From contig NZ_JBHSTI010000008.1 of assembly GCF_042660085.1 (NCBI RefSeq), positions 840,001 through 872,000 of the forward strand: a stretch of 32,000 nt of DNA. The letters are read 5' to 3'. The position numbers and the translations under genes are program-made. Source of the DNA: Longivirga aurantiaca. GTDB taxonomy: Bacteria; Actinomycetota; Actinomycetes; S36-B12; CAIYMF01. Under the pieces are notes generated by a model. That model searched no databases and was not told the DNA's origin. It saw nothing but the letters and a program-made list of their open reading frames with translations. How positions within the stretch are numbered: the first letter of the stretch is position 1; every line of letters begins with the position of its first letter. Below are positions 9,782-23,415 of the stretch, piece by piece.

Positions 9782-10235
9782 GGTCGTCTCCCTCCGCGTC
9801 GTACGAGGCCTCGAGGTGGTCGAAGACCGCCGCGCCGGCTGCCGCCGCCGCGGCGTCCTGCGCAGCCGTCCCGCCGCTGACGCCGACCCCGCCGACGACG
9901 CGGCCGCACGACCACAGCGGGACACCGCCCGCGAAGGCGATGTAGCGGCCGCCGTCCGCCGAGTTCATGCCGACGAGCTCGCCGCCGTCCGTGACCAGGG
10001 GGCCGAGCTCGGCCGTGGCGATGCGGTGCGCCACCGCCGTGTACGCCTTGTCGCGGGCAAGGGTCGGCCCCGCGATCTCGGCGCCGTCCATGCGCTGGAA
10101 GGCGACCAGGTGCCCGCCGCCGTCGACGACCGCCACCGACACGAGCGCGTCGGCGTCCGCCGCCGCGGCGCGGGCCGCCCCGCACATCGCGAGTGCGAGG
10201 TCGAGGTCGATCTCGGTCCTGGTCGCGCGGGCCAT
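9774..10235 (-). CDS. GlcG/HbpS-like heme-binding protein (DUF336; resembles the PduO C-terminal domain)
   Basis: ATG at 10233-10235 follows CCAGGAGC. VSVAVVDGGGHLVAFQRMDGA, ARDKAYTAVA and GGVPLWSCGRVVGGVGVSGGTAAQD are typical DUF336 blocks. It overlaps the dehydratase start by 8 nt (GTGGCTGA). Confidence 0.75.
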   Translation of the reverse strand: MARATRTEIDLDLALAMCGAARAAAADADALVSVAVVDGGGHLVAFQRMDGAEIAGPTLARDKAYTAVAHRIATAELGPLVTDGGELVGMNSADGGRYIAFAGGVPLWSCGRVVGGVGVSGGTAAQDAAAAAAGAAVFDHLEASYDAEGDDRG

Positions 10236-10262
10236 GCGGGCTCCTGGGGGAGGGGTTGAGGA

Positions 10263-10291
10263 CAGAATGCGCCCCAGAAGGGCGCGTTCTG
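10263..10291 (-). terminator. Hairpin immediately downstream of the amidase stop
   Basis: CAGAATGCGCCC-(c)agaa-GGGCGCGTTCTG forms a 12-bp stem with one T/C mismatch, 4 nt after the stop at 10295-10297. There is no U-tract, as is common in high-GC actinobacteria. Confidence 0.45.
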
Positions 10292-10294
10292 CCC

Positions 10295-11311
10295 TTAGCG
10301 GGAGAACTGGCGCAGGGCGGCGTGGGTGCCGCGCATGGCGACCGCGCCCGCGAGCACGGACTTGGGCACCTTCGCGACCACGGTGTAGTTGGTGTCGACC
10401 ACGTTCGCCACCGGTGTCAGCGCGGTCTGCGACACGAGCTGGTAGGCGTCGAGGATCGACTGGCCCGTGAGCTCGGCGACCCAGAGCACCATCTGCTGGT
10501 GGGCGATGCGGAACGCGTCCTCGAGAGGACGGGCCGAGCCCGTGGTCATGATGAACGTGTCGTTCTCCATCCGCGGCCACGGTGTGGGGATGCCCTTGAC
10601 CAGGTCGAGGATCACGACGGTGTCCATGGCGCACTCGACCGCGACGCCGCAGGTCTCGCCCTCGCCCTGCCGCGCGTGACCGTCGCCCAGGCTGAACAGC
10701 GCGCCCTCGACGTTCACGCCGAGGTAGCAGGTGGTGCCCGCCCGCATCTCGGGGGTGTCCATGTTGCCGCCCCAGTCGCCCGGGGTGAGGGACGAGCGCA
10801 CCTCGCCGAGCGGGGGCGCGACGCCGACCGTGCCGTGCATGGGATCGAGCGGGAGGTCGGCGGTGAACTTCGTGTCGGCCGCGCTGTAGCGGACGAGCCT
10901 GTCCGTGGCGTCGATCTCGTAGATCCAGGTGCGCTCGAGGAGCGCGGGCTGGAGCGTGGCCGTCTGCGGGGTGGAGGTGAGCGATCCGAAGAAGGGGACC
11001 GTGCTGCTGACGCCCCAGGCCTCGCGCGGCTCGATCGAGACGAAGTGGACGGCGAGCGTGTCGCCCGGCTCGGCGCCCTCGACGTAGAAGGGGCCCGTCT
11101 GCGGGTTGAGCAGGCGGGGGTCGCACACCTCGCTCGGGAGGTCCGACGTGGAGCGCACGCGGCCGCCGAAGCAGTCGAAGGTCCAGGTCGACAGCCGGGT
11201 CCGGGGACGGACGGAGGCGACGGGGGCGACGCCGCCGAAGGTGTAGGTCAGGGCGGCGGGGTCGCCGTCGGGGTCGGGAGCCCAGAACAGGTCGGTCAGC
11301 GAGTCGGTCAC
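10295..11311 (-). CDS. Acetamidase/formamidase (FmdA/AmdA) family amidase
   Basis: I prefer the GTG at 11309-11311 after AGGGAGA. NPQTGPFYVEGAEPGDTLAVHFVSIEP resembles the family's TGPI(Y/F)VEGAEPGD block. GNMDTPE and LSLGDGHARQGEGE resemble the metal/active-site region. Confidence 0.75.
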   Translation of the reverse strand: MTDSLTDLFWAPDPDGDPAALTYTFGGVAPVASVRPRTRLSTWTFDCFGGRVRSTSDLPSEVCDPRLLNPQTGPFYVEGAEPGDTLAVHFVSIEPREAWGVSSTVPFFGSLTSTPQTATLQPALLERTWIYEIDATDRLVRYSAADTKFTADLPLDPMHGTVGVAPPLGEVRSSLTPGDWGGNMDTPEMRAGTTCYLGVNVEGALFSLGDGHARQGEGETCGVAVECAMDTVVILDLVKGIPTPWPRMENDTFIMTTGSARPLEDAFRIAHQQMVLWVAELTGQSILDAYQLVSQTALTPVANVVDTNYTVVAKVPKSVLAGAVAMRGTHAALRQFSR

Positions 11312-11352
11312 GGCAGCAGTCTCCCTGCGCAGGCGACGGTTCGGAGGGCGAA

Positions 11353-11394
11353 CGAAGGGGGTGCGCCGCGCATCTGCGCGACGCACCCCCTTCG
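11353..11394 (-). terminator. 13-bp stem hairpin downstream of the permease stop
   Basis: CGAAGGGGGTGCG-16 nt-CGCACCCCCTTCG begins 12 nt after the permease stop (11406-11408). Confidence 0.55.
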
Positions 11395-11405
11395 GTGGTG
11401 CGAGG

Positions 11406-13019
11406 TCAGACGCGCTCGTGCGCCTCCTCGAGGGTGGTCTGGCCGATCTCGTCGTAGATCTCCGGCTTGGCCTTCTTGACCCAGAGGGCGTAGAGGAAGC
11501 CGATCACGAGGATGCCGACGATGTACCACGGCATGAGCTGGAACACGAGGCTGTCCGAGCCCAGACCGGCCGCGAACGCACGGTTGGTCCAGAGCAGGTA
11601 CAGCGCGTAGAGCATGCCCGCCGCGCCGAGGAGCGGTGCGATGAGCGTGGTGATGATGTTGCCCTTGTGCGTCTTCTTGACCCAGAAGTACGAGATCACC
11701 GCGAACGAGGTGATCGTCTGGACCAGCAGGATCATGGCCGTGCCGATCACGGCGATGAGGCCGTAGACGTTGACGTAGGGCACGAGCTCGGGCGTCGCCA
11801 CCGGGTTGCCCTCGGCGTCGGGCACGTACACGTTCGTGAAGAGCAGGAACGCGACGAGGATGACGACGGTGATGCCCGTCTGCAGGTACACCGCGTTGGC
11901 GGGCGACTGGTGCTTGGCGTTGATCTTGCCGAACGAGTTGCGCATCCAGCCCCACGCGCCCTCGCGGGCAAGGGCGTAGATGTAGCGGGACGCGGCGTTG
12001 CCGAAGGCCAGGGCGCAGGCGAACGAGCCGATGACCAGGAGGATCTTGTAGACCGTGGTCATGAAGTCGCCCATGTTGGCGGTGACGAGGCCTAGCCAGA
12101 GGTCGACCGGGTTGGCGCCGGCGGAGATCTCGACCGACTGCGCGGCACCGTTGCCGACCACGACCACCCACGACATGAGCGTGTAGAAGAGGCCGAGGCC
12201 GATGACGGCGATCATCGTGGCCCGCGGCACGTTCTTCTTCGGGTCCTTGGACTCCTCGCCGTACACGGCGGTCGTCCCGTAGCCGATCCACGACCAGAAC
12301 GCGAAGAAGATGCCGATGGCGGCGGCACCCTGTGCCACGGCGGTGCCGAAGGCGCCCTCCTCGAGGGAGTTGAACGCGTTCTGCACGGGCACGATGTCGC
12401 TGAACATGAGGCCGTCGGGGCCGCCCTTGGCGAAGACCGTGACCGCGAGGCCGAGCAGCAGGAGCACCTCGGCGACGAGGGTGACGCTGAGGACGCCGGC
12501 GGCGACGGTGATCGAGAAGTACGTGAGGAGCCCGATCGCGATGGCGCCGATGAGGGCGATCACGATCCAGTTCACGTTGATGCCGGCCGGCACGAGGATG
12601 TAGCTGGTGGCGAAGTACGCGAACCCGCCGATCAGCGAGGCCTCGAAGACGATGTAGGCCACTGCCGCGAGAAGGCCGGACGCCATGCCCCACACCTGGC
12701 CGAGGCCCTGGGAGATGAAGCCGTAGAACGCGCCCGCGGTCGTCACGTACTTCGCCATGGCGACGAAGCCGATGGTGAAGATCGTGAGGACGATCGTGGC
12801 GAAGAGGTAGCCGGCCGAGGCGCCGATGCCGTTGCCGTAACCGATCGCGATGGGCACGTTGAAGCTCATCGCGGTGATCGGCGCGGCGTTGGCCACGGCC
12901 ATGAAGAGGACGCCGACGAGGCCGACGGCGCCCGCCTTGAGGCGGACCTCCTCCTTCGGGCTCACGTGGTGGTCGCCCGGGAGGGCGGTGGGACCGTCAG
13001 GACCGTGTTCGGTCGTCAT
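11406..13019 (-). CDS. APC-superfamily amino acid/amine permease
   Basis: ATG at 13017-13019 follows AAAGGAAC. The 537-aa product has about 12 hydrophobic segments (e.g. AVGLVGVLFMAVANAAPITAMSF, GASAGYLFATIVLTIFTIGFVAMA, FFAFWSWIGYGTTAVYGEE). The 104 codons upstream in ORF 11406..13331 look non-coding. Confidence 0.85.
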   Translation of the reverse strand: MTTEHGPDGPTALPGDHHVSPKEEVRLKAGAVGLVGVLFMAVANAAPITAMSFNVPIAIGYGNGIGASAGYLFATIVLTIFTIGFVAMAKYVTTAGAFYGFISQGLGQVWGMASGLLAAVAYIVFEASLIGGFAYFATSYILVPAGINVNWIVIALIGAIAIGLLTYFSITVAAGVLSVTLVAEVLLLLGLAVTVFAKGGPDGLMFSDIVPVQNAFNSLEEGAFGTAVAQGAAAIGIFFAFWSWIGYGTTAVYGEESKDPKKNVPRATMIAVIGLGLFYTLMSWVVVVGNGAAQSVEISAGANPVDLWLGLVTANMGDFMTTVYKILLVIGSFACALAFGNAASRYIYALAREGAWGWMRNSFGKINAKHQSPANAVYLQTGITVVILVAFLLFTNVYVPDAEGNPVATPELVPYVNVYGLIAVIGTAMILLVQTITSFAVISYFWVKKTHKGNIITTLIAPLLGAAGMLYALYLLWTNRAFAAGLGSDSLVFQLMPWYIVGILVIGFLYALWVKKAKPEIYDEIGQTTLEEAHERV

Positions 13020-13329
13020 GCGCGGGTGTTCCTTTCGCTGGAGGCGCTGGGGGCGTGCCGCCGTCCGTCGGCCCGCTCCGTGATCGGGCTCACACGTTGT
13101 GGCGGAGTATTCACTGGACCTTTGGACCGAATCAAGCATTTTGGCGAACCGTTTACGCAGCCGAAACGGTCCCCCGTTCGGTCCAGCGTGGGGCGGGGGT
13201 CGACGAAATGTCCGCGTACGGCACGGTCGCCCCGCACGGCCCCGCAGGATGTGCCGCACATACGGTCTTGTTTTGGTCTGGTCATTCGGTATGCTCCGGT
13301 CATCGGTGCGAACGCGACCGGAGGTTCCC
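13020..13329. promoter_or_regulatory. Divergent control region between the permease (-) and the BMC operon (+), with candidate promoters and GGTC/GACC-rich repeat motifs
   Basis: Plus side: TTGTTT (13268-13273), 16 nt, TATGCT (13290-13295), SD GGAGG (13320-13324). Minus side: TTGATT (complement of 13130-13135), 18 nt, AATACT (complement of 13106-13111). Both spacers hold TGGTC/TGGACC repeats (13274-13284; 13115-13128). The centre is locally lower in GC. Confidence 0.4.
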
Positions 13330-14655
13330 ATGACCGACCAGATCCGGGTCGAGGACGGCGAGACGCCGCTCGACTACGGCTTCTTCTCGTTCGCGTCCAA
13401 GACCGAAATGCTCGAGAAGAGCAAGGAGTTCTGGAACCCGGACAAGACCACGTTCTGGTCCGAGTCGGGCGTCCCCCTGGTCATCGACCGGCGCGAGGAC
13501 TACTTCATCTACGACGTCACCGGCAAGCGCCTCATCGACGTGCACCTCAACGGCGGCACGTACAACCTCGGGCACCGCAACCCCGAGATGGTGCAGGCCA
13601 TCACCGTGGCGATGCAGCACTTCGACATCGGCAACCACCACTTCCCGTCGCTCGCGCGCACGGCGCTGGCCGAGGCCCTCATCGCCACCGCGCCGAGGAA
13701 CCTGTCGAAGGTCGTCTACGCGTCCGGCGGCGGCGAGGCGATCGACATCGCGATCAAGACCGCGCGGCACGCCACGCAGAAGCGCAGGATCCTCTCGATC
13801 GTGAAGGCCTACCACGGCCACACCGGCCTCGCCGTCGGCACGGGCGACGACCGCTTCTCCAAGCTCTTCCTCTCGGACCAGCCCGAGGACTTCCCGCACG
13901 TCCCGTTCAACGACCTCCAGGCCATGGAGGACGTGCTCAAGGGGCGAGACATCGCCGCGGTGATCATGGAGACGATCCCGGCGACGTACGGCTTCCCGCT
14001 GCCGGACCCGGGCTATCTCGAGGCCGTCAAGCGCCTGTGCGAGAAGTACGACGCGCTCTACATCGCCGACGAGGTGCAGACCGGGCTCATGCGCACCGGC
14101 GAGCTCTGGGGCATCACCAAGCACGGCATCGAGCCGGACATCCTCGTGACGGGCAAGGGCATCTCGGGCGGCATGTACCCGATCGCGGCCGTGCTCGTGA
14201 GCGAGCGGGCGGCCGGCTGGCTCGACGAGGACGGCTTCGGCCACATCTCGACCTTCGGCGGCGCCGAGCTCGGCTGCATCGCCGCGCTCAAGGCGCTCGA
14301 GATCTGCAACCGCCCCGAGACGCGGTCGATGGTCCACTACATCTCGGACTTCATCGGGCGCGGCCTGCGCGACATCCAGGCGACCTACCCCGACTGGTTC
14401 GTCGGCATCCGCCAGAACGGCGTGGTGATGGGCCTGGAGTTCGCGCACCCGCAGGGGGCCAAGGCGGTCATGAAGAGGCTCTACGAGAACGGCGTGTGGG
14501 CGATCTTCTCCACGCTCGACCCCCGGGTGCTGCAGTACAAGCCCGGGATCCTGCTCAAGCCCGAGGTGGCCGAGGAGCTGCTCGACCGCACCGAGGTGGG
14601 CATCGCCAGGGCCCGCGAGGACGTGCTCGGCGCGGGCAGGAAGGCGTGGCGCTGA
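13330..14655 (+). CDS. Class-III aminotransferase-fold PLP enzyme; in this context probably an amino-alcohol O-phosphate phospho-lyase
   Basis: ATG at 13330 follows GGAGG. SGGGEAIDIAIK, YHGHTG, LYIADEVQTGLMRTGELWG and DILVTGKGISGG (PLP lysine) are class-III blocks. The phospho-lyase role is inferred from RMM/AAUM-type loci, not from sequence. Confidence 0.85.
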   Translation: MTDQIRVEDGETPLDYGFFSFASKTEMLEKSKEFWNPDKTTFWSESGVPLVIDRREDYFIYDVTGKRLIDVHLNGGTYNLGHRNPEMVQAITVAMQHFDIGNHHFPSLARTALAEALIATAPRNLSKVVYASGGGEAIDIAIKTARHATQKRRILSIVKAYHGHTGLAVGTGDDRFSKLFLSDQPEDFPHVPFNDLQAMEDVLKGRDIAAVIMETIPATYGFPLPDPGYLEAVKRLCEKYDALYIADEVQTGLMRTGELWGITKHGIEPDILVTGKGISGGMYPIAAVLVSERAAGWLDEDGFGHISTFGGAELGCIAALKALEICNRPETRSMVHYISDFIGRGLRDIQATYPDWFVGIRQNGVVMGLEFAHPQGAKAVMKRLYENGVWAIFSTLDPRVLQYKPGILLKPEVAEELLDRTEVGIARAREDVLGAGRKAWR

Positions 14656-16223
14656 TGGTCGAGACCATGTTCGAGATGCCGCTCGACCCCGCCGGTGTGC
14701 CGCGCGGCCGGGCCATGGTCGAGCGCGCCGAGTGGGCGGCCCGCGCGTTCGCGTCGTACGACGCCGCCACGGTGCAGCGCATCGTCGACGCCGCTGCCGG
14801 TGCGGGCGCCGCCCACGCGAAGGAGCTCGCCGAGGAGGCCGTGCGCGAGACCGGGTTCGGCGTGGCCGAGCACAAGCTGCTCAAGAACCTCGCGTGCTCG
14901 CGCGGGATCGCCGAGCTCTACAGGGCGGCCGACTACGTCGACGTCGTGGTCGACGCCGACGCGAAGATCGTGTCGGTGCCGCGCCCGGCCGGTGTGGTGC
15001 TCGCGCTGACGCCGTCGACCAACCCTGTCGCGACCGTCTTCTTCAAGACCCTGCTCGCGCTGCTGACGCGCAACGCCATCGTGATCTGCCCGCACCCTTA
15101 CGCCAAGGAGGTGTGCGCCAAGGCGGCGCGCATCATGTCCGAGGCCGCCGTGGCCGCGGGAGCCCCCGACGGCTGCATCCAGGTGGTCGAGGAGCCGTCG
15201 ATCCCGCTCGTCAACGCGCTCATGACCGACCCGCGCACCGACGTCATCGTGGCGACCGGCGGCTCGGCGATGGTGCGCTCGGCGTACCGCAGCGGCAACC
15301 CCGCCATCGGCGTGGGGCCCGGCAACGTGCCGGTGCTCGTCGACGCCTCCGCCGACCTCGCCGCGGCCGCCAAGCGGATCGTCGACAGCAAGGCGTTCGA
15401 CAACTCGATCCTGTGCACCAACGAGAGCGTGCTCGTGGTCGAGAAGGCGGTCGCGAAGCAGCTGGTGAGCCAGCTCGAGCGCGCGGGCGCGCACCTGCTG
15501 GCCCCCGACGAGCGCGACCGTGTGCGCGACCTGATCTTCCCCGGCGGCCACTTCGACACCGCGTGGGTGGGCAAGGACGCCACCGACATCGCGAAGGCCG
15601 CCGGCGTGCGTGTGGGGCCGCGCACCCGGATCCTGCTCGCGCCGTTCGACCTCGTCGTGCCCGAGGAGCCGCTCGCGCACGAGAAGCTCTGCCCGGTGCT
15701 CGGCATGGTGGTGGTCGAGACGGCCGCCCGCGGCATCGACGCCGCCCGCGCGGTCCTGCGCATCACGGGCGAGGGTCACTCGGCCGCGATCCACAGCACC
15801 GACGCGCGCACGATCATGGAGTTCTCCGCGGCGGTCCGCGTGCTGCGCGTGTCGGTCAACGTCGGCAACAGCCTCGGCAGCTCGGGTCTCGAGACCAACC
15901 TCGCGCCCTCGATGACGATCGGCACCGGCTTCTTCGGCCGCTCGTCGGTGGGCGAGAACCTCGAGCCCAAGCACCTCGTCAACTGGACGCGCATGGCGTG
16001 GAACGCCGACTCCTCGGTGCGGATGCCCGACCTCGCCGCGCTCACCCCGTGGCACGCGCCCGACGGCCCGGTGCCGGCGTACCCGCGGGCGTCCAACGAC
16101 GGAGGGTCGCCGCTCGTGCCGTCGCCCACGACGGACATCGCGGTCGAGGGCGCGCCGGACAACCTGCGCGACGAGATCCGCCGGCTCATCATCGAAGAGC
16201 TCAACGCGATCGTGCGGGGCTGA
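14655..16223 (+). CDS. CoA-acylating aldehyde dehydrogenase (PduP/EutE-like) with C-terminal extension
   Basis: The ATG overlaps the upstream stop (TGATG). LTPSTNP, ATGGSAMV, GVGPGNVPV, the catalytic-Cys block FDNSILCTNES and HEKLCPVLG are present. A ~70-aa Pro-rich tail ends in DNLRDEIRRLIIEELNAIVRG. Confidence 0.85.
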   Translation: MVETMFEMPLDPAGVPRGRAMVERAEWAARAFASYDAATVQRIVDAAAGAGAAHAKELAEEAVRETGFGVAEHKLLKNLACSRGIAELYRAADYVDVVVDADAKIVSVPRPAGVVLALTPSTNPVATVFFKTLLALLTRNAIVICPHPYAKEVCAKAARIMSEAAVAAGAPDGCIQVVEEPSIPLVNALMTDPRTDVIVATGGSAMVRSAYRSGNPAIGVGPGNVPVLVDASADLAAAAKRIVDSKAFDNSILCTNESVLVVEKAVAKQLVSQLERAGAHLLAPDERDRVRDLIFPGGHFDTAWVGKDATDIAKAAGVRVGPRTRILLAPFDLVVPEEPLAHEKLCPVLGMVVVETAARGIDAARAVLRITGEGHSAAIHSTDARTIMEFSAAVRVLRVSVNVGNSLGSSGLETNLAPSMTIGTGFFGRSSVGENLEPKHLVNWTRMAWNADSSVRMPDLAALTPWHAPDGPVPAYPRASNDGGSPLVPSPTTDIAVEGAPDNLRDEIRRLIIEELNAIVRG

Positions 16224-16226: not shown

Positions 16227-16829
16227 GTGGCCGAGCTCCGTTCGTTCATCTTCCTCGACCGTCTGCAGCCGCAGACCATGAGCTACATGGGCTCGACGGT
16301 CAAGGGCGCCCTGCCGCGCGCCGACATGGCCTCGCTGATCATCGAGGTGGCGCCCGGTCTCGACATCGAGCCGCTGACCGACGTCGCGCTGAAGTACGCC
16401 GAGGTGCAGGCGGGCATCCTCGTGGTCGAGCGGCAGTACGGCTACCTCGAGGTGCACGGCCCCACCGGCCAGGTGAAGGCCGCGGGCGACGCCGTCCTGC
16501 AGGCCCTCGGCGCGGACCCCGACCAGGCGACGAGGCCGCAGGTGCTCGCCTCGCGGATCGTGACGATGCTCGACCGCCAGCACGCGTTCCTCATCAACCG
16601 CAACAAGGCGGGATCGATGGCGCTGCCGGGCGAGTCGCTGTTCGTGCTCGAGATGGCGCCGGCGTCGTACGCGATCCTCGCCACCAACGAGGCCGAGAAG
16701 GCCGCGGCGATCAAGGTCGTGGACTTCCGCATGATCGGTGCGACGGGCCGGGTGTACCTGTCGGGCAAGGAGAGCGACGTCCGCCAGGCGGCCGATGCCG
16801 CCGAGGCTGCCCTGCGGGCGGCACGATGA
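16227..16829 (+). CDS. BMC shell protein, tandem BMC-domain type (BMC-T), paralog 1
   Basis: GTG start. Two BMC-like halves are visible: [43 protein letters not shown], and ESLFVLEMAPASYAILATNEAEKAAAIKVVDFRMIGATGRVYLSGKESDVRQAADAAEAAL. The latter aligns with the PduA-type fold. Confidence 0.8.
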   Translation: MAELRSFIFLDRLQPQTMSYMGSTVKGALPRADMASLIIEVAPGLDIEPLTDVALKYAEVQAGILVVERQYGYLEVHGPTGQVKAAGDAVLQALGADPDQATRPQVLASRIVTMLDRQHAFLINRNKAGSMALPGESLFVLEMAPASYAILATNEAEKAAAIKVVDFRMIGATGRVYLSGKESDVRQAADAAEAALRAAR

Positions 16830-17266
16830 GCAGTCTCGACGGGACCGAGCGGGACCTCCTGCGCCAGATGGTGCGCCAGGTCCTGCTGGAGGTCGTGCCC
16901 CAGACGATGGCCGCGGCATCCGCGTCCGCGAGCGCGTCCGACGAGAGCGTCGTGCTGACCAACGACGCCGAGCTCGAGGCGTTCGTGCGCCGGGTCGCGG
17001 TGCTCTGCGAGGACCCGGCCGAGCGCGAGGCGCTGCGCAGCGGGAGCCGTCGCTTCCGTCTGGCCGGCCACCCGGCGCCGTCCACATCCGCTCCCGCCCC
17101 CGCAGCCGCGGTGGTCCGGGTCGACAAGGGGGCCGTCACCGAGCGGCACGTGCGCGAGGCGGCGGCTGCGGGCGCCGACCTCGTCCTGGGACGAGGCGCC
17201 GTCCTGACTCCGCTCGCGCGCGACCGCGCGCGGGCTGCGGGCGTCCGGATCACGAAGGAGAAGTGA
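16826..17266 (+). CDS. BMC-associated hypothetical protein with N-terminal encapsulation-peptide-like amphipathic helix
   Basis: ATGA overlaps at both ends. The N-terminus TERDLLRQMVRQVLLEVV resembles the PduD/PduP targeting helices. Ala/Ser (AAASASASAS) and Pro/Ala/Ser linkers follow. The C-terminal module reads GAVTERHVREAAAAGADLVLGRGAVLTPLARDRARAAGVRI. Confidence 0.6.
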   Translation: MSSLDGTERDLLRQMVRQVLLEVVPQTMAAASASASASDESVVLTNDAELEAFVRRVAVLCEDPAEREALRSGSRRFRLAGHPAPSTSAPAPAAAVVRVDKGAVTERHVREAAAAGADLVLGRGAVLTPLARDRARAAGVRITKEK

Positions 17267-17520
17267 TGCTGCGCGGACGGGTGATCGGGAACGTGTGGGC
17301 CAGCCGGAGGCTGGACGAGATCCCTTCAGGCGCGTTCCTGGAGGTGCAGATCGAGGGTGGCGCGACGCTCATCGCGTTCGACGTCCTCGGCAGCGGGATC
17401 GGGGAGTCCGTGCTCGTGTCCACGGGGTCGGTCGCGGCCTCATGGTTCCCGGGCGCCGCGCCCCCGATCGACGCGCTCATCATCGGCTCCATCGACGAGA
17501 CAGCAGGCGCGCAGCAGTAG
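17266..17520 (+). CDS. BMC vertex pentamer protein (BMC-P; EutN/CcmL/PduN family)
   Basis: MLRGRVIGNVWASRRLDEIPSGAFLEV...AFDVLGSGIGESVLVSTGSVAA...IDALIIGSIDE matches the EutN/CcmL pattern. It is 84 aa long. Confidence 0.85.
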   Translation: MLRGRVIGNVWASRRLDEIPSGAFLEVQIEGGATLIAFDVLGSGIGESVLVSTGSVAASWFPGAAPPIDALIIGSIDETAGAQQ

Positions 17521-17577: not shown

Positions 17578-17862
17578 ATGTCGAACAACGCGATCGGTCT
17601 CATCGAGACCAAGGGCTACGTCGCCGCGCTCGCCGCCGCGGACGCGATGGTGAAGGCCGCCAACGTCGTCATCGTCAGCCGCGACTCGGTCGGCAGCGGC
17701 CTCGTGGCCGTGACGATCGTCGGCGACGTCGGCGCCGTGAAGGCGGCCACCGAGGCCGGCGCCGAGACGGCGTCGTCGGTCGGCGAGCTCGTGTCGGTGC
17801 ACGTCATCCCGCGCCCGCACGTCGAGCTCAGCAAGCACTTCACGGTCAGCGGCGACGCGTGA
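17578..17862 (+). CDS. BMC shell hexamer protein (BMC-H; PduA/EutM-like)
   Basis: [33 protein letters not shown]...[25 protein letters not shown]...VHVIPRPH is the canonical Pfam BMC-domain signature. Confidence 0.95.
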
Positions 17863-18509
17863 GCTCGGCCCCGATCGCGGGGCCGGAGCTGCGTGTCTAC
17901 CTGCTGATCGAGGACCTGCAGCAGCAGTTCGCGGCGTACCTCGGTACGCCGACGCGAGCACGCGGCTACCCGCCGTACGCCGGGCAGCACGCGCTCATCA
18001 TCGAGGTCGCACCAGGCCTCGCCATCGAGCGCGTGACGCACCAGGCGCTGACGTCGGTGCCCGACATCGAGCCGGGCATCCTGTTCGTCGAGCGTCAGTT
18101 CGGCGTGCTCGAGGTGCACGCGTCGTCGCTCGACGACGTGCTGCGCGCGGGCGAGGCGATCCTCGACGGCCTGGGCGCGGAGCCGGCCCACCAGCTGGCG
18201 CCGCGCGTGCTGTACCACGACGTCATCGAGGACGTCACCGACATGCACGCGGTCATCATCAACCGCAACCGGCAGGCCTCGATGCTGCTGCCGGGGCAGT
18301 CGCTGCTCGTGTACGAGATGACGCCGGCGCTGTTCGCGGCCGTCGCGGCCAACGAGGCCGAGAAGGTCGCGCCGGAGAACACCCTCGTCGACGTGCAGAT
18401 GATCGGCGCCGCCGGTCGCGTGTACATCGGCGGCACCACCGAGGGCGTCATGAAGGCGCGCGACGCGATCACCCGGGTCCTCGGGTCGATCGAGGGCCGC
18501 GGCCACTAA
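17859..18509 (+). CDS. BMC shell protein, tandem BMC-domain type (BMC-T), paralog 2
   Basis: The GTG overlaps the BMC-H stop (GTGA). It aligns by eye with 16227-16829: ELR..., [12 protein letters not shown](F/V)VERQ(F/Y)G.LEVH, (I/L)INRN, NEAEK, MIGA(A/T)GRVY. Confidence 0.8.
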
Positions 18510-18548: not shown

Positions 18549-19541
18549 ATGGGAGAGCGAGTGAGCACGGAGCTCGACACCGAGCACCTCGAGGTCTTCG
18601 CGCGCGGCGCGGCGGCCGAGCACGGGATGCCCGACGCGGAGATCACGCTGCTCAACGTGTCGGAGAACGCGACCTACCGCGTCGACTCGGCCGACGGCCG
18701 TCGGCTGGTCCTCCGCGTGCACCGCACCGGCTACCACACGCGCGAGGCGATCGAGAGCGAGCTCGCCTGGATCAGGGCGCTGCGCGCCGACGGTGTGGTG
18801 CACACGGCCCCCGTGATCGCGACCCCGGACGGCCGCGACATCGTCGTCGTTCGCCACCCCGGCGGCGAGGAGCGCAACGTCGTCGCGTTCGAGTGGATGA
18901 ACGGCACCGAGCCGCCGGAGGACAGGCTCGTCGACGACTTCCGCGAGCTCGGGGCCATCGCCGCGAGGCTGCACCGGCATGCCCGGCAGTGGGTGCGCCC
19001 GCCCGGGTTCACCCGGTTCCGCTGGGACTTCGACACCTCTCTCGGGGCGAACGGGCACTGGGGGCGCTGGCAGGACGGCATGGGCATGGGCCCGGCCGAG
19101 CTCGACGTGCTCGGCCGTGCCGCCGACCTCGTGCAGCGGCGGCTCGCCGCCTTCGGCACGGGTCCGGACCGGTTCGGCCTCGTGCACGCGGACATGCGCC
19201 TCGCCAACCTGCTCGTCGACGGCAGCAGCGTGTGCGTGATCGACTTCGACGACTGCGGCCTGTCCTGGTACCTCTACGACCTGGGCTCGTCGCTGTCGTT
19301 CATCGAGCACCTGCCGGTGGTGCCCGAGCTGGTCGACTCGTGGATCACCGGCTACCGCACCGAGGGCACGCTGTCGCAGGAGGAGGTCGACGAGCTGCCG
19401 ACCTTCATCATGCTGCGCCGGCTCCTGCTGGTGGCCTGGATCGGCTCGCACTCCGCCGTCCCCGAGGCTCAGCGGATGGGCCCGGAGTTCACCACCGTCT
19501 CCTGCGACCTCGCCGAGAAGTACCTCGTCCAGCACGGCTGA
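18549..19541 (+). CDS. Aminoglycoside-phosphotransferase (APH/ChoK) family kinase; in this context probably an amino-alcohol (1-amino-2-propanol) kinase
   Basis: The kinase catalytic loop [15 protein letters not shown] and the metal-binding VIDFDDCG are present. GTG at 18561 is an alternative start. Substrate is inferred from locus type. Confidence 0.8.
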
Positions 19542-19557: not shown

Positions 19558-20346
19558 ATGTTCAGCTCCATCGCCGGCCGCTCCGTCATCGTCACCGGTG
19601 GCACCAAGGGGATCGGCAAGGGCATCGCCCGCGTCTTCGCCCGCGCCGGCGCCAACGTCCTCATCACCGGCCGGAACGAGGCCGACGCAGCCGCCTGCGC
19701 GGAGGAGCTCACGGCGCTGGGCGGCGGCACGGTCACGTACGTGCTCGGCGACGTCGCGTCCGCCGCCTCGTGCGCGGAGATGGCGGCCACGGCGGTCGAG
19801 CGCAACGGCGGCATCGACGTGCTCTGCGCGAACGCCGGCATCTTCCCCGACTCCAAGCTCGCCACCATGACCGAGGCCGACATGGATCTCGTCTTCGGCA
19901 CCAACATCAAGGGCACGCTGCTGTCGGTGCAGGCGTGCATCCCCGCGCTCACGGCGTCGGGCCGCGGCCGGGTGATCCTCACCTCGTCGATCACGGGGCC
20001 GATCACCGGCTACCCGGGCTGGTCGCACTACGGAGCCAGCAAGGCCGCGCAGCTGGGCTTCATGCGCACGGCCGCGATCGAGCTCGCACCGCGCAAGATC
20101 ACCGTGAACGCCGTGCTTCCCGGCAACGTCGCGACCGAGGGGCTTGCCGAGCTCGGTGCCGACTACCGCGCCTCGATGGAGGCGACGATCCCCATGAAGG
20201 CGCTCGGCGAGGTCGACGACATCGGCAACGCCGCGCTGTTCTTCGCCACCGACGAGGCGGGCTACATCACCGGCCAGGCGCTCGCGGTCGACGGCGGCCA
20301 GGTGCTGCCCGAGTCGCTCGCGGCGCTGGAGGCCGCGGCCGACTAG
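19558..20346 (+). CDS. Short-chain dehydrogenase/reductase (SDR), FabG-like
   Basis: ATG follows [21 protein letters not shown] (TGxxxGxG), NAGI and the catalytic YGASKAA (YxxxK) are present. Confidence 0.9.
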
Positions 20347-20387: not shown

Positions 20388-21185
20388 ATGACCGAGACCG
20401 ACGCCCTGCTGGGGCCCACGGCCGACGAGGCGCGTCGCAACATCGTCCGGCTCATCACCTCCGGTGCCCTGCGGCCGGGCCAGCGGCTCGGCGCCGAGCG
20501 CGACCTCGCGGTGCAGCTCGGCGTCAGCAGGTCCACCCTGCGCGCGGCGCTCGCGTCGCTCGAGCAGGACGGGCTGGTGCGCCGGGTGCCGGGCCGCGGA
20601 GGCGGCACGTTCGTCGCGCGGGAGAAGATCGACCGCGACCTCTCGCGCATCGTGGGCGTACCGGCCCTGCTGCGCGACCAGGGCTACACCGCGGGGTCGC
20701 GGGTGGTCAGCGGCGCGGTCGTCCCGCCTGACGCGGACGCCGCGGCTGCGCTCGCACTGCCGCCGGACTCGTTCGTCGTCGACCTCGTCCGCATCCGCCT
20801 CGCGGACGGCAGCCCGATCTCGCTGGAGCACGCGCGGTTCCCCGCCGAGCGGTTCCCGGGGCTGCTCGAGCGTCCGCTGGGCGGCTCGCTGTACCAGCTG
20901 CTCGAGAAGGACTACGGCGTCGGCCCGCATCAGGCCGTCGAGAGGCTCGAGGTGGTGTCGGCCTCGGACGACGAGGCCCGGGTGCTCGGCGTCGCACCCG
21001 GTGCGCCGCTCATCTCGATCACCCGCACCACCGTGGACGCGGACGGGGAGCCGTTCGAGTACTCGCACGACCTCTTCCGGGCCGACCGCACCCGCATCAC
21101 CGTGCGGACGTCGGGCGCGCCGGCCGGGGCCGGGCAGGACGCCACCCGCGGCCGCCTCGTCGAGGTCCGCGAGAACATGGCCTGA
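20388..21185 (+). CDS. GntR-family transcriptional regulator, HutC subfamily (wHTH + UTRA effector domain)
   Basis: The GntR wHTH reads LRPGQRLGAERDLAVQLGVSRSTLRAALASLEQDGLVRRVPGRGGGTFVA. The C-terminal half (ISLEHARFPAERFPGL, YSHDLFRADRTRI) has a UTRA-like pattern. Confidence 0.85.
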   Translation: MTETDALLGPTADEARRNIVRLITSGALRPGQRLGAERDLAVQLGVSRSTLRAALASLEQDGLVRRVPGRGGGTFVAREKIDRDLSRIVGVPALLRDQGYTAGSRVVSGAVVPPDADAAAALALPPDSFVVDLVRIRLADGSPISLEHARFPAERFPGLLERPLGGSLYQLLEKDYGVGPHQAVERLEVVSASDDEARVLGVAPGAPLISITRTTVDADGEPFEYSHDLFRADRTRITVRTSGAPAGAGQDATRGRLVEVRENMA

Positions 21186-21251
21186 CCCCGGCGGTCGGTG
21201 CGAGCATCGGGGCGCGGCGTACGGCGGGTCGCTCCCGCCGAGGCAGGAGCG

Positions 21252-21710
21252 CTACGGAGCGGCCGTGATGGCCGCGGCGACCGCCGGCGAGATGTCGACG
21301 AGCGCATCGGCCTCGGGCGCGTACTCGTCAGGAACGCTGACCTCGACGTTGAGCTCGCGGCCCACCGTGGTGAACAGGTAGCCGCGCTCGAGCGGCTCCG
21401 GCAGCCAGTCGACGCCGTCGACGGTGATGAGCTGCGAGGTCGGCCCGAGGGCCGCCGGGACGGGGACGCCGCAGCGCACCACGATCGCCGGGTCGCCCCA
21501 CGCGGCGGTGAACGAGCTGCGGGGGTCGACGGCCGTCACCGTCTGACCCACGACCTCGTCCGGGAGGTTGCTCTTGAAGTTGGCGCACGCGTAGGCGCCG
21601 GCCCCCTCGGGGAGGGGGTCGGGCAGCGGGACGGCGAGCCCTCGGGAGCAGCCGGTGAGCACCAGCACGGACGCGGCAGCGGCGATGCCGCCGACGAGCC
21701 TCCTGCCCAC
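21252..21710 (-). CDS. Putative lipoprotein, DUF3515-like (conserved ddl-thiL neighbourhood protein)
   Basis: A GTG at 21708-21710 gives VGRRLVGGIAAAASVLVLTGCS, a signal peptide plus lipobox. The family call rests on position and on my recollection of actinobacterial synteny. The start is uncertain. Confidence 0.5.
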   Translation of the reverse strand: MGRRLVGGIAAAASVLVLTGCSRGLAVPLPDPLPEGAGAYACANFKSNLPDEVVGQTVTAVDPRSSFTAAWGDPAIVVRCGVPVPAALGPTSQLITVDGVDWLPEPLERGYLFTTVGRELNVEVSVPDEYAPEADALVDISPAVAAAITAAP

Positions 21711-21721
21711 GACTGCCGGGA

Positions 21722-21958
21722 TCAGAGGTGGACGACGGGGCAGGTGAGGGTGCGGGTGATGCCCTCGACCGCCTGGATGCGCGCCACGACGAGCTTGCCG
21801 AGCTCGTCGACGCTGCGCGCCTCGGCGCGCACGATGACGTCGTACGGGCCGGTGACGTCCTCGGCCTGCGTGACGCCCTTGATCTGGGCGATCTCGGCGG
21901 CCACGTGGGCCGCCTTGCCGACCTCGGTCTGGATGAGGATGTAGGCCTGTACCACCAT
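21722..21958 (-). CDS. Small Lrp/AsnC ligand-binding-domain-only protein (78 aa)
   Basis: ATG follows GAGGAGG. MVVQAYILIQTEVGKAAHVAAEIAQIKGVTQAEDVTGPYDVIVRAEARSVDELGKLVVARIQAVEGITRTLTCPVV has the AsnC-type beta-alpha-beta-beta-alpha-beta pattern. Confidence 0.7.
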   Translation of the reverse strand: MVVQAYILIQTEVGKAAHVAAEIAQIKGVTQAEDVTGPYDVIVRAEARSVDELGKLVVARIQAVEGITRTLTCPVVHL

Positions 21959-22130
21959 GGTCGTCCTCCTCGGTCGGATGCTGGTGCGGACGGGGGACGT
22001 GCGACCTGGTGCCACCCCGTGGATCGTGCGGTCCCGCGCCTGTGCAGGGCCGCAGGGCGACACTAGCGCCAGGGTGAGCCGCTCGGAGAACGGGTACGGG
22101 ACCCTCCCGCCGGACGTGAAGGAGAACACA

Positions 22131-23102
22131 GTGCCGAATGTGCCCGCCGGTGGTGCCGGCGAGGTGTCCGGGCTGGGGGAGTTCGGCCTCATCGGAGCGG
22201 TCGTGGGCCGGTTCGCCGTGACGCCCGACGTCCTGCTCGGCCCCGGCGACGACGCCGCGGTGGTGGCGGCCCCGGACTCCCGGGTGGTGGCCACCATGGA
22301 CCTGCTCGTCGAGGGGCGGCACTTCCGCCGCGACTGGTCCTCCGCGCACGACGTAGGGCGCAAGGCAGCGGCCCAGAACCTCGCGGACCTGGTGGCCATG
22401 GGGGCGCGGCCCACGGCGCTGCTGGTGGGGCTCGGCTGCCCGCCGGACCTGCCCGTCGACTGGGCCACCGGGCTCGCGGACGGCCTCGCCGACGAGTGCG
22501 CGCTCGTCGGCGCCACCGTCGTCGGGGGCGACGTCGTACGCAGCGACCACGTCGTGGTCGCCGTGACGGCGCTCGGCGATCTCGAGGGACGGGCGCCCGT
22601 GACACGGTCCGGTGCTCGGCCGGGCGACGTGCTGGCCGTCGCCGGCCGCCTCGGATGGTCGGCAGCCGGTCTCGCCGTGCTCGGGCGCGGCTTCCGGTCG
22701 CCGCGCGTGCTCGTCGAGGCGCACAAGGTGCCGGCGCCGCCGTACGCCGCAGGCCCGGCCGCCGCGGTGGCGGGGGCGACGTCGATGGTCGACGTGTCCG
22801 ACGGGCTGCTGCAGGACGCGGGCCATGTGGCCACGGCGTCCGGGGTGGTCCTGGAGATCGACACCGCGACGCTCGAGGTGGGCCAGCCCCTGGCCGACGC
22901 GGCGGCGGCGTTCAGCGCCGACCCGCTCGAGTGGGTGCTGCGCGGGGGAGAGGACCACGCGCTGCTGGCGACCTTCCCACCGGGCGCCGCGCTGCCCGAC
23001 GGCTTCGTGGCGATCGGCCGCGTGAGCGCGGGCGAGGCGTCGGTGCTGGTCGACGGCGTACCTGCCACCGGTCTCGGCGGCCACGACCACTTCCGGTCCT
23101 GA
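22131..23102 (+). CDS. thiL: Thiamine-monophosphate kinase
   Basis: GTG at 22131 follows GAAGGAGA. LGEFGLIGAV, GPGDDAAVV, DLLVEGRHF, NLADLVAMGARP, VDVSDGLLQDAGH, GGEDHALL and the C-terminal GHDHF match ThiL. Confidence 0.85.
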   Translation: MPNVPAGGAGEVSGLGEFGLIGAVVGRFAVTPDVLLGPGDDAAVVAAPDSRVVATMDLLVEGRHFRRDWSSAHDVGRKAAAQNLADLVAMGARPTALLVGLGCPPDLPVDWATGLADGLADECALVGATVVGGDVVRSDHVVVAVTALGDLEGRAPVTRSGARPGDVLAVAGRLGWSAAGLAVLGRGFRSPRVLVEAHKVPAPPYAAGPAAAVAGATSMVDVSDGLLQDAGHVATASGVVLEIDTATLEVGQPLADAAAAFSADPLEWVLRGGEDHALLATFPPGAALPDGFVAIGRVSAGEASVLVDGVPATGLGGHDHFRS

Positions 23103-23113
23103 CGCTCGAGGAG

Positions 23114-23329
23114 TCAGGTGAGGCGGTAGGTGGCGCCGGGGACGGTGACGACGTCGCCGGCGGCGAGCTGGGCGCCGCGGCGCTGCTCGACCGCGCCGTT
23201 GACCTGCACGTCGCCCGCGGCGAGGAGGTCCTTGGCCTCGCCGCCGGTCTCGACGGCGTTGACGTACTTCAGGAGCTGGCCGAGGCGGATGCCTGCGGCG
23301 CCGACCTCGACGTCCTCGGTGTGGCTCAT
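23114..23329 (-). CDS. RNA-binding S4-domain protein (YbcJ-like, 71 aa)
   Basis: IRLGQLLKYVNAVETGGEAKDLLAAGDVQVNGAVEQRRGAQLAAGDVVTV resembles E. coli YbcJ (LCDLLKLEG...GQVKVDGAVETRKRCKIVAGQTV). Confidence 0.65.
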   Translation of the reverse strand: MSHTEDVEVGAAGIRLGQLLKYVNAVETGGEAKDLLAAGDVQVNGAVEQRRGAQLAAGDVVTVPGATYRLT

Positions 23330-23365
23330 GGCCGCATCCTCTCTCGGTCGTGGGGCTGGGACGTG

Positions 23366-23399: not shown

Positions 23400-23415
23400 A
23401 CAGGAGTGCGGAGCG

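Follow-up and report, generated by a model that had tools for sequence, protein, structure and literature searches.

RMM1/AAUM is the microcompartment for utilization of aminoacetone or 1-amino-2-propanol, and the RMM/AAUM locus is also found in mycobacteria and rhodococci. Its core gene set, described in PMC4207490 and in the supplement to PMC8217296, comprises a class-III aminotransferase, an aldehyde dehydrogenase (AldDH), one BMC-H, one BMC-P and two BMC-T shell proteins, an APH kinase, an SDR, a GntR and an amino-acid permease. An encapsulation peptide (EP) is defined as a terminal amphipathic helix of about 15-20 residues that a flexible linker joins to the rest of the protein (PMC8217296).

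How metabolosome cores attach to their shells is the question on which the present locus bears, and in the Pdu system PduM is the main candidate for this attachment. The N-terminal 23 residues of PduM are an experimentally proven signal that targets GFP to the MCP core; in Salmonella the protein is of low abundance and associates with the core, and deletion of pduM leads to partly separated core and shell and to enlarged MCPs (PMC12108088, PMC9132943). Contact between PduM and the shell is debated, a link between PduB(1-37) and PduM having been proposed in PMC9132943 and disputed in PMC12108088. EutQ must retain its N-terminal 100 residues to pull down EutM, a BMC-H protein (PMC4827028).

Here we analyze a 146-residue protein, X146, encoded in a 32,000-nucleotide stretch of the Longivirga aurantiaca genome (the window).

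A fixed component of RMM1/AAUM-type loci

The X146 gene and its shell-gene neighbors lie in the window as follows:

16227..16829, plus strand: BMC-T (tandem BMC domain) shell gene, upstream neighbor (PF00936, E=6.6e-10, in two stretches)
16826..17266, plus strand: X146 gene, stop codon included, for a 146-aa PduM-like protein (ORF and translation)
16826..16829, plus strand: ATGA start/stop overlap of the upstream BMC-T gene and X146, consistent with translational coupling
17264..17268, plus strand: TGATG stop/start overlap of X146 and the downstream BMC-P gene, a 1-nt overlap with the ATG at 17266
17266..17520, plus strand: BMC-P (EutN/CcmL pentamer) shell gene, downstream neighbor (PF03319, E=5.1e-17)
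17578..17862, plus strand: BMC-H hexamer shell gene (PF00936, E=1.6e-25)

X146 is encoded by a real gene. Translation of positions 16826-17266 on the plus strand gives the 146-aa protein quoted in the preliminary description of this DNA, and a database protein 100% identical to it is annotated 'hypothetical protein [Longivirga aurantiaca]'. The gene sits between BMC-T (16227-16829) and BMC-P (17266-17520), as that description had stated. It had also reported ATGA overlaps on both sides; this is right for the upstream junction (16826-16829), whereas the downstream junction reads TGATG, not ATGA. With an alternative BMC-P start codon, GTG at 17263, that junction would become GTGA.

X146 is a fixed component of RMM1/AAUM-type microcompartment loci. 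Pfam assignments and conserved synteny identify the RMM1/AAUM1 core gene set in the window locus, in agreement with its published description, and the position between BMC-T and BMC-P is kept in all 82 homologous loci (80 genome loci and two metagenome contigs). The gene order AT3, AldDH, BMC-T, X146, BMC-P, BMC-H, BMC-T, kinase, SDR, GntR occurs in 80/80 genome loci and is identical in both of the long-linker variants, which are found on the metagenome contigs; the BMC-P gene follows directly 3' of the X146 gene in 80/80 loci. The family is large, with 2638 homologues at E<=1e-3 that form 897 clusters at 50% identity, and its members range from 105 to 286 aa in length; the conservation of all three modules across it greatly exceeds what chance would give. 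Co-occurrence of homologues with BMC genes, suggested earlier as a check, is complete, in that homologues were found in BMC loci only in 82 of the 82 contexts examined. The RMM type locus of R. jostii RHA1 contains an X146 orthologue annotated as 'hypothetical protein', and a literature search on MSMEG_0274 and on TIGR02536 found no papers. The present analysis gives this previously 'hypothetical' core gene of the RMM/AAUM locus a name.

Architecture of X146 and its N-terminal helix

X146 is composed of three conserved parts joined by disordered Ala/Pro/Ser linkers, and the whole AlphaFold2 (AF2) model has a pTM of 0.36. The parts and linkers are:

16844..16900, plus strand: N-terminal amphipathic EP-like helix, residues 7-25, TERDLLRQMVRQVLLEVVP (AF2, hydrophobic moment, conservation)
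16901..16942, plus strand: linker 1, residues 26-39, Ala/Ser-rich and length-variable (low pLDDT, length variation)
16943..17065, plus strand: middle module, residues 40-80, VxLxxDADLxAFVRRxAxLxxxPxxRxxLxxGxRRFRL (two predicted helices)
17066..17110, plus strand: linker 2, residues 81-95, Pro/Ala/Ser-rich (pLDDT, non-conservation)
17111..17263, plus strand: C-terminal beta-alpha-beta-alpha-beta module, residues 96-146, GAVTE...AVLTPLARDRARxxGVxI (AF2, hhalign, HMM)

The amphipathic helix read from the sequence at the N-terminus is borne out by the structure prediction, which places a helix at residues 6-34 (block pLDDT 84 for residues 11-20). The helix follows the pattern LL-RQ-MV-RQ-VL-LE-VV, of the canonical encapsulation-peptide type. 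The hydrophobic moment of RDLLRQMVRQVLLEV is 0.52, in the range of the proven EPs of PduP (0.40), EutC (0.55), PduD (0.70) and PduM (0.76). A PhiPhi-xx-PhiPhi-xx-PhiPhi pattern lies inside the first 45 residues in 76 of 80 X146 orthologues, and L12, R13, V19, L20 and P25 are invariant in this region of the family. In a relaxed hhalign run the helix is colinear with the N-terminal helix of PduM. However, the reversed PduM alignment gave P=0.003, from a back-to-front pairing of the two N-terminal helices, and the likeness of the helices is therefore one of pattern and by itself no evidence of homology. Prediction and conservation together give X146 a terminal amphipathic helix joined by a flexible linker, as in the EP definition, and we regard the helix as a putative encapsulation peptide whose targeting activity is suggested by this pattern.

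A second EP lies just upstream in the same locus:

16164..16220, plus strand: AldDH C-terminal encapsulation peptide, LRDEIRRLIIEELNAIVRG (hydrophobic moment 0.62)

This peptide is kept in nearly all related loci and had been missed earlier, when X146 was taken to be the sole EP-bearing protein, which is wrong. The companion observation, that the kinase, the PLP enzyme, the SDR and the dehydratase have no terminal targeting helix, holds on inspection of their termini; across loci, none of the PLP enzyme, kinase and SDR has a conserved terminal EP. The idea of an adaptor would apply solely to the EP-less PLP enzyme, and the AldDH C-terminal EP is a likely co-assembling partner of the X146 helix.

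The low-complexity linkers described before are likewise supported, AF2 confidence falling over both of them while the flanking modules are conserved. Linker 1 (block pLDDT 58 for residues 31-40) is the chief site of length variation, and family members are often matched as two stretches. Linker 2, with pLDDT below 50 at residues 83-90, is unconserved and length-variable. Between them, the middle module is modeled as helices 47-60 and 64-72 (pLDDT 84-88), with conserved columns at V42, A48, L50, F53, R55/56, R67, G73, F77 and L79; Pfam scans of X146 and of 105 family members and a PDB profile search gave no significant family match for this module.

Remote relatives of the C-terminal module

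AF2 models the C-terminal module as strand 96-104, helix 106-115, strand 118-127, helix 129-138 and strand 142-144 (pLDDT 87-90), and residues G102-E106 and T128-D133 are invariant in the family. No curated family threshold in Pfam or NCBIfam is reached by X146, consistent with the earlier statement that it carries no recognizable enzymatic motif. PF15953 does not match the window protein at E<=1 and is weak in just 3/105 members (best E=0.014), and against TIGR02536, with a cutoff of 152.6 bits, X146 scores 16.4, over profile positions 162-205 of 207 only. A lead appeared in Pfam and NCBIfam only on a joint scan of 105 family members, not with X146 alone. When these diverse members were compared with 18,950 NCBIfam models, the top families were all BMC-associated: the C-terminus of TIGR02536 was matched by 79/105 members (best E=1.9e-4), the PduM models NF011957 and TIGR04493 by 13/105 (best E 0.012) and 4/105, and NF012001 EutQ by 7/105.

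Profile-profile comparison with hhalign gave the same families. The match of the X146 family with PduM, which pairs X146 residues 94-144 with PduM residues 113-161, strengthened from P=5.9e-4 with five sequences to P=2.1e-5 (probability 77%) with 23 sequences. The family matched TIGR02536 at P=2.5e-4 and residues 3-46 of E. coli EutQ at P=3.7e-4 (38% identity); all of 40 column-shuffled controls had P>=0.068. A single C. difficile TIGR02536 sequence gave a weak match (P=0.018), so that the family profile is needed. In a blind search with an HMM of the X146 family's module alone, over 1079 six-frame ORFs from ten non-RMM loci, the top five hits were three PduMs, EutQ (N-terminus) and TIGR02536 (C-terminus). 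In the AF2 model of PduM (pLDDT 91), a beta-alpha-beta-alpha-beta unit is in register with the X146 module.

These comparisons point to remote homology of the X146 C-terminal module with the C-terminus of PduM, the C-terminus of TIGR02536 and the N-terminus of EutQ, over a span of only about 45 residues and with profile-profile probabilities of 43-77%. The T-P-L-A-R-D module, which had seemed familiar in the preliminary description, can now be named as this shared element. Directly compared in hhalign, PduM and EutQ gave no significant match (P=0.055), and on the present alignments the actinobacterial X146 family is a bridge between the two. Foldseek searches against the PDB found no solved structure significantly like the X146 or the PduM model (best E for X146, 0.013), and the predicted structures therefore give no functional clue.

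Several other identities were rejected. The sole PDB profile match, the phycobilisome linker Glr2806 of Gloeobacter (E=3e-7), reflects chance or helix-pattern similarity; its E-value is inflated by three identical repeats, each with an i-Evalue of about 6.6. Foldseek overlaps with IF2/eIF5B and deaminases are generic, covering only a beta-alpha-beta unit of 45-50 residues, and are not significant. The CoA_binding_2 label (E=0.045) is below cutoff and occurs in 3/105 members, LpxI_C is absent among the Pfam matches, and both of these labels, like E3_binding and IF-2, are generic or effects of linker composition.

Proposed role and alternatives

In our reading, X146 is probably a small, non-enzymatic structural component of the RMM1/AAUM microcompartment, a reduced and remote relative of PduM that tethers core to shell. 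The N-terminal helix would act as an encapsulation peptide that joins the enzyme core by co-assembly, above all with the AldDH C-terminal EP, which resembles it, and the two flexible, length-variable linkers would supply reach. The 50-residue C-terminal module would dock on a shell protein, either BMC-H, a candidate partner modeled on EutQ and EutM, or the co-translated BMC-P. A tether of this kind, present in low abundance, would couple core to shell and help set compartment closure and size; the two-helix middle module may in addition bind the EP-less PLP-dependent enzyme. Every binding partner named here, as well as the linker function, we infer. The adaptor or scaffold proposed in the preliminary description survives in part: X146 is non-enzymatic, a flexible linker attaches its EP-like helix, every context examined is a BMC locus and its nearest relatives are PduM-type proteins, but the premise that it is the only EP bearer fell. 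By analogy with PduM, a scarce tether that joins core to shell is a likelier role for X146 than that of a bulk scaffold.

As an alternative, X146 and PduM-type proteins in general could work specifically with the BMC-P pentamer, recruiting or positioning pentamers, closing the shell and setting its size, rather than tethering the core to a facet. BMC-P is the sole neighbor common to all four locus types (RMM, 82/82; PDU; GRM; EUT2), the X146 stop codon overlaps the BMC-P start codon, and in Klebsiella a PduM-PduN read-through fusion is apparently tolerated. The enlarged or elongated compartments of the pduM deletion and the low abundance of PduM resemble a vertex-protein defect as well (PMC9132943, PMC12108088). 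Yet adjacency to BMC-P may merely reflect co-regulation of two low-abundance components, and EutQ, which bears the module, is not encoded beside eutN in E. coli and binds the hexamer EutM (PMC4827028); we consider a vertex role unlikely. Far less credible still is a role outside the compartment, as a cytosolic assembly chaperone or regulator whose helix would be an oligomerization element and not an EP. EutQ has been proposed to work from the cytosolic face of the shell (PMC4827028), but the X146 helix shows a canonical EP pattern and is similar to the EP of AldDH from its own locus, and that of PduM is a proven core-targeting signal (PMC12108088).

Two further readings start from the conserved modules of X146. 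Strong conservation of the middle module, linkers suited to a tether, and the lack of a conserved terminal EP on the PLP enzyme, kinase and SDR (AldDH has one) would fit a cargo adaptor, in which the middle or C-terminal module binds an EP-less enzyme, chiefly the class-III aminotransferase-like PLP enzyme, and the EP carries it inside. Such an adaptor would be needed in stoichiometric amounts, which is hard to reconcile with the scarcity of PduM and with the overlap between X146 and low-copy BMC-P. An alternative route for the PLP enzyme would be to enter bound to AldDH. Relatives of the C-terminal module are also encoded in PDU, GRM and EUT loci, whose cargo is wholly different, so that the shell, shared by all BMCs, is the more plausible partner; we consider the cargo adaptor unlikely. 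It is very unlikely, in turn, that the invariant GAVTE and TPLARD segments bind a nucleotide or cofactor (CoA, NAD, phosphate) in a half-Rossmann-like site, serving cofactor retention or recycling in a metabolosome without PTAC and alcohol dehydrogenase. In favor of such a site are the weak CoA_binding_2 match (E=0.045), the UniRef label 'LpxI C-terminal domain-containing protein', local Foldseek overlaps with small beta-alpha-beta units of nucleotide-binding proteins, the annotation of EutQ as an acetate kinase, and RMM loci without the usual cofactor-recycling enzymes (PMC4207490). But CoA_binding_2 matches only 3/105 members, there is no significant Foldseek match, the glycine-rich loop is absent, and for PduM, which shares the module, only a structural role is reported (PMC12108088, PMC9132943).

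If the core-shell tether is the right reading, at least three further compartment types contain remote relatives of PduM, all of which have kept an N-terminal EP and the C-terminal module, and this retention by all relatives would mark the module as the conserved working part. The 146-residue RMM protein would then be a minimal natural version suited to dissection, and its EP, linker and docking module would offer compact, portable parts for engineering synthetic compartments. The module, with the consensus h-[ST]-x-x-[DE]-h ... h-h-T-[PA]-x-A-[RK]-[DE], is distributed over PduM (PDU, GRM), TIGR02536 (EUT2), EutQ (EUT1) and the X146 family (RMM). More tentatively, and with some doubt on our part, these roughly 45 residues might serve all catabolic microcompartments as a domain-based docking device. 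Paired with an EP, they would define a single ancient linker family, core-shell or core-vertex, at work beside EPs in most metabolosomes and encoded by a gene coupled to the pentamer gene. The module is possibly also behind the 'EutQ-like' short proteins and extensions of SPU6 and MIC2 loci.

Comparison with known systems

Like X146, PduM (PF15953 PDU_like; TIGR04493 / NF011957) is a small, non-enzymatic protein with an N-terminal amphipathic signal helix, residues 1-23 in PduM. The C-terminus of each is a beta-alpha-beta-alpha-beta module that contains (I/V/L)-T-(A/P)-L-A-R-(D/E), and the tail of the PduM module, ...(I/V)T-A-L-A-R-(E/D)...I-x-L-I-K-Q-E, has a counterpart in X146. In PDU and GRM loci the PduM gene immediately precedes the one for BMC-P, as does the X146 gene in RMM loci. 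Identity between the two is about 25%, however, and extends over only about 45 residues. PduM is a compact alpha/beta protein of 163 aa (pTM 0.80) whose central domain takes up about 100 residues (approximately 24-112); in its place X146 has two helices (47-72) and two disordered linkers, with no significant alignment there. Since this central domain is absent, the function of the PduM body may not transfer to X146. The two also belong to different BMC types with different cargo, and the X146 gene follows BMC-T whereas that of PduM follows PTAC.

The best library match to the X146 family is TIGR02536 'eut_hyp' (e.g. C. difficile WP_009897060.1) from Firmicute EUT2 loci. Its C-terminal module, KKLISESDLRK...KKSIITPLAxDF, corresponds to that of X146; its N-terminal helix, MNYDNLVDLITEEIYKKIN, is likewise EP-like, and it too has a linker of low complexity. 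The gene stands between PTAC and BMC-P, directly upstream of BMC-P as in the X146 locus. TIGR02536 proteins are longer (220-260 aa), and X146 has no counterpart of their conserved central domain, which spans about 110 residues.

The alignment of E. coli EutQ (b2460) with X146 pairs residues 3-46, LITANDIREAHARGEQAMSVVLRASIITPEAREVADLLGFTITE, with residues 103-144 and reaches 38-40% identity. The segment mapped for EutM binding comprises the first 100 residues of EutQ and is wider than the 45-residue module. EutQ carries the module at its N-terminus, ahead of a fused cupin domain (PF06249), whereas in X146 it is C-terminal, and a Pfam scan of X146 gave no PF06249 or cupin match. E. coli EutQ has no EP helix and its gene does not adjoin eutN, while X146 has an EP-like helix and adjoins BMC-P; in C. 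difficile EutQ the module is missing and an EP-like helix takes its place.

CcmN / CcmM and CsoS2 are non-enzymatic, modular core-shell linkers or scaffolds with flexible linkers, and CcmN has a terminal EP. X146 would share with them a working principle and no known sequence relationship, these proteins being built from other domain families and belonging to anabolic carboxysomes. PduM, too, has been compared with these carboxysome linkers (PMC9132943).

Gene and locus context

The window DNA is high in GC and actinobacterial, and the 146-residue protein quoted in the preliminary description, X146, is the translation of ORF 16826-17266 (+). The identical database protein is a 'hypothetical protein' of Longivirga aurantiaca with the UniRef label 'LpxI C-terminal domain-containing protein'. 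The surrounding genes were assigned by Pfam unless stated otherwise.

Genes of the microcompartment (BMC) locus
11406-~12974, -, amino-acid permease
13321-14655, +, class-III aminotransferase-like PLP enzyme
14655-16223, +, aldehyde dehydrogenase
16227-16829, +, first BMC-T
16826-17266, +, X146 gene (ORF translation)
17266-17520, +, BMC-P
17578-17862, +, BMC-H
~17859-18509, +, second BMC-T (likeness to first BMC-T and synteny)
18549-19541, +, APH-type kinase
19558-20346, +, SDR
~20400-21185, +, GntR regulator

This gene set is an RMM1/AAUM (aminoacetone / 1-amino-2-propanol utilisation) microcompartment as described in PMC4207490 and the PMC8217296 supplement. The X146 gene is thus part of a known locus type, yet it is 'hypothetical' in PGAP and unmentioned in the RMM1 descriptions consulted. 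The second BMC-T had no Pfam match whatever at E<=1; its counterparts on related contigs matched PF27545 CsoS1D_N only, or nothing. ATGA overlaps had been reported on both sides of the X146 gene: the upstream one, with BMC-T, is present, whereas the downstream junction reads TGATG, or GTGA if the start is GTG 17263. That stop and start codons overlap at both junctions, with BMC-T and with BMC-P, points to low-level co-expression with shell components.

Upstream of the permease gene lies a divergent cluster (5478-11386, -). The layout is the one named RMM2 by Axen et al., in which the dehydratase is encoded on the other strand. No encapsulation peptide (EP) is evident on the diol-dehydratase subunits.

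Genes of the divergent cluster
10295-11386, -, acetamidase/formamidase
9774-10262, -, HbpS-like/GlcG protein
7541-9769, -, fused B12 diol-dehydratase large and medium subunit
7182-7544, -, diol-dehydratase small subunit
5478-7172, -, dehydratase reactivase

Downstream, 21250-27700 looks housekeeping-like from its ORF translations alone (DUF3515-like lipoprotein, small AsnC-type regulator, thiL, S4-like protein, ribosomal protein L28, DAK2/YloV-like protein, recG). If so, the BMC locus is chromosomal and on no obvious mobile element.

Family distribution and synteny

Homologues of X146 number 2638 proteins at E<=1e-3, in 897 clusters at 50% identity, and occur in 289 species genomes among those scanned. 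The synteny sample comprised the closer relatives. Within it the gene lay between BMC-T and BMC-P in 80/80 retrieved loci with operon order unchanged, the few absent neighbours being due to contig ends; two metagenome variants with long linkers (276 and 286 aa) have the same context. Among these closer relatives, the association with BMCs is absolute. The possibility that homologues occur mostly outside BMC loci, raised in the preliminary description, fails because all sampled homologues sit inside them (80/80 loci and 2/2 variants).

In R. jostii RHA1, the pRHL2 locus, which is among the founding RMM loci, carries the orthologue WP_011600239.1, also annotated 'hypothetical protein'. There, BMC-T / X146 orthologue / BMC-P / BMC-H form a block found in two copies (6680-8276 and 10573-12169 of our locus L088) with identical protein accessions, and between the copies lie a 'microcompartment protein' gene and the aminotransferase gene. 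The arrangement is a recent tandem duplication inside the RMM locus.

Anatomy of X146

In alignments of 26 and 105 homologues, three blocks are conserved, with linkers of differing length between them: (D/E)xLRxxVRxVLx(D/E)hhP, VxLxxDADLxAFVRRxxxL...RxxLxxGxxxFRL and RVxxGAVTERxVxxAAxxGxxLVLGxxAVLTPLARDRARxxGVxI. Members are 105 to 286 residues long, and most of the additional residues fall after the first helix, ahead of the middle block. An AlphaFold2 model built with the 26-sequence alignment (mean pLDDT 78, pTM 0.36) predicts a helix at residues 6-34, a low-confidence stretch at 31-40 (block pLDDT 58) and two further helices (47-60 and 64-72; pLDDT 84-88). Confidence then falls below pLDDT 50 at 83-90, and residues 96-144 are predicted to form a compact beta-alpha-beta-alpha-beta unit (pLDDT 87-90).

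The EP-like amphipathic N-terminal helix proposed earlier is borne out by this model and by hydrophobic pairs that alternate along it in textbook EP fashion (LL-RQ-MV-RQ-VL-LE-VV). The helix has a hydrophobic moment of 0.52, compared with 0.40 (PduP), 0.55 (EutC), 0.70 (PduD) and 0.76 (PduM) for proven EPs, and the EP pattern occurs within the first 45 residues of 76/80 orthologues.

A phycobilisome-linker likeness (X146 8-59 versus PDB 9k9w chain M2, Gloeobacter Glr2806) is probably due to chance. The weak similarity (EEDLQGVLRAVYRQVL...ISVREFVRRIAKS) pairs the N-terminal helix and the beginning of the middle module (residues ~40-80) with repeat starts; each repeat has an i-Evalue of ~6.6, and three identical copies inflate the summed E-value.

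The C-terminal module is shared with PduM, TIGR02536 and EutQ

Alone, X146 gave matches below threshold only, to the last 44 positions of NCBIfam TIGR02536 'eut_hyp' (E=0.0055, 16 bits versus a cutoff of 153) and to CoA_binding_2 (E=0.045). When 105 diverse members were scanned against 18,950 family models, the top families were all microcompartment proteins, namely TIGR02536 (79/105, best E=1.9e-4), NF011957 PduM (13/105), NF012001 EutQ (7/105) and TIGR04493 PduM (4/105); Pfam PDU_like was matched by 3/105.

Profile-profile comparisons were made with PduM as encoded in the pdu operons of Salmonella, Klebsiella and E. coli and in glycyl-radical (GRM) loci carried by Enterobacter and Kosakonia plasmids, with E. 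coli EutQ, and with TIGR02536 proteins of C. difficile and its relatives, together with a Cetobacterium counterpart that bears no such annotation.

Profile-profile matches of the C-terminal module
X146 family vs PduM, 5 sequences: P=5.9e-4, C-terminal module
X146 family vs PduM, 23 sequences: P=2.1e-5, probability 77%, 94-144 vs 113-161
X146 family vs TIGR02536: P=2.5e-4, 100-142 vs 195-238
X146 family vs EutQ: P=3.7e-4, 38% identity, 103-144 vs 3-46
PduM vs TIGR02536: P=4.9e-3, C-terminal modules

PduM versus EutQ directly was not significant (P=0.055). The motif h-h-T-(P/A)-x-A-(R/K)-(D/E) is in register across all these alignments, and in 40 column shuffles per target P never fell below 0.068. 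In a blind search of ten non-RMM loci (1079 six-frame ORF segments) with an HMM of the X146-family module only, the best five matches were three PduMs, the EutQ N-terminus and the TIGR02536 C-terminus, and the next had E>0.4. When Salmonella PduM was modelled with AlphaFold2 (pLDDT 91, pTM 0.80), its strands and helices of 114-161 corresponded element for element to X146 96-144 in the hhalign register. Foldseek returned no significant solved structure similar to either model. We conclude that the module is homologous in X146 and these three groups, with good confidence as regards PduM and moderate confidence as regards TIGR02536 and EutQ.

Proposed role

X146 scores below the curated cutoffs for PduM and TIGR02536 and has the central domain of neither, so we do not class it as a PduM family member; we regard it as a remote, reduced variant with a probably PduM-like mode of action. 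Its N-terminal helix would anchor X146 in the enzyme core, the C-terminal module may dock on a shell protein, and the linkers would let both ends bridge the core-shell gap. A helix similar to that of X146 is the canonical C-terminal EP of the aldehyde dehydrogenase (LRDEIRRLIIEELNAIVRG, 16164-16220, +), which follows a Pro/Ser-rich linker and is kept in nearly all related loci. As described earlier, no EP-like helix was found at the termini of the kinase, PLP enzyme or SDR. The PLP enzyme is reportedly the source of aldehyde inside the compartment in the AAUM pathway of Mallette & Kimber; because it has no terminal EP, the conserved middle module could recruit it. All partner assignments for X146 are our inference.

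The adaptor proposed in the preliminary description survives in this possible recruitment; a purely cargo-adaptor role is possible but fits poorly, since the C-terminal module also occurs in loci with unrelated cargo. A rival reading places X146 specifically at the vertex, with BMC-P, and draws on the universal BMC-P adjacency, the size phenotype of pduM mutants and a Klebsiella PduM-PduN read-through fusion. The latter, P0306 (256 aa, 5 cluster members), has the pduM stop changed to Cys and contains both PF15953 and PF03319 by Pfam; it may be either a natural fusion that is tolerated or a sequencing variant. Cofactor binding by X146 has sub-threshold support only.

Comparison with known systems

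Like X146, PduM, TIGR02536 and a Cetobacterium protein each begin with an EP-like helix (MNGETLQRIVEEIVSRL, MNYDNLVDLITEEIYKKIN and MNENDLLDIIRKEIEKYI, respectively) and end with the module. X146 and PduM are colinear, helix to helix and module to module, at a relaxed alignment threshold; a reversed-sequence control marks the helix likeness as one of pattern, which is no proof of descent. The Cetobacterium protein, a 198-aa 'hypothetical protein' encoded between pduL and an EutN/CcmL gene on a C. somerae plasmid (L090:8202-8798), combines its EP-like N-terminus with a divergent copy of the module (...IFITDSAKEYLK...) and looks like an unannotated TIGR02536/PduM-like member in Fusobacteria.

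A BMC-P gene immediately follows the module-encoding gene in PDU (pduL-pduM-pduN), GRM (pduL-pduM-eutN-like), EUT2 (eutD-TIGR02536-eutN) and RMM loci (BMC-T-X146-BMC-P). In contrast, enterobacterial EUT1 operons lack such a gene and carry the module at the EutQ N-terminus, of PduM type in E. coli (L081:22303-23004), whereas C. difficile EutQ (L087:15513-15980) lacks it and has an EP-like N-terminal helix (NLIETLVRQIIEEKI). Module and EP appear to be exchangeable additions to the EutQ cupin domain. In the literature searched, which did not extend to the M. smegmatis RMM papers, we found nothing that ties PduM to X146, to TIGR02536 or to the N-terminus of EutQ.

According to the authors of PMC12108088, no homology of PduM is known beyond Pdu compartments; they showed that its residues 1-23 suffice to direct GFP to the compartment core and that, when this signal or all of pduM is deleted, the core comes partly apart from the shell and compartments are oversized. 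Yang et al. likewise take PduM to mediate the binding of shell to core, and liken it to CcmM/CcmN (PMC9132943). EutQ and the BMC-H protein EutM elute together, an association lost once the first 100 residues of EutQ are removed (PMC4827028).
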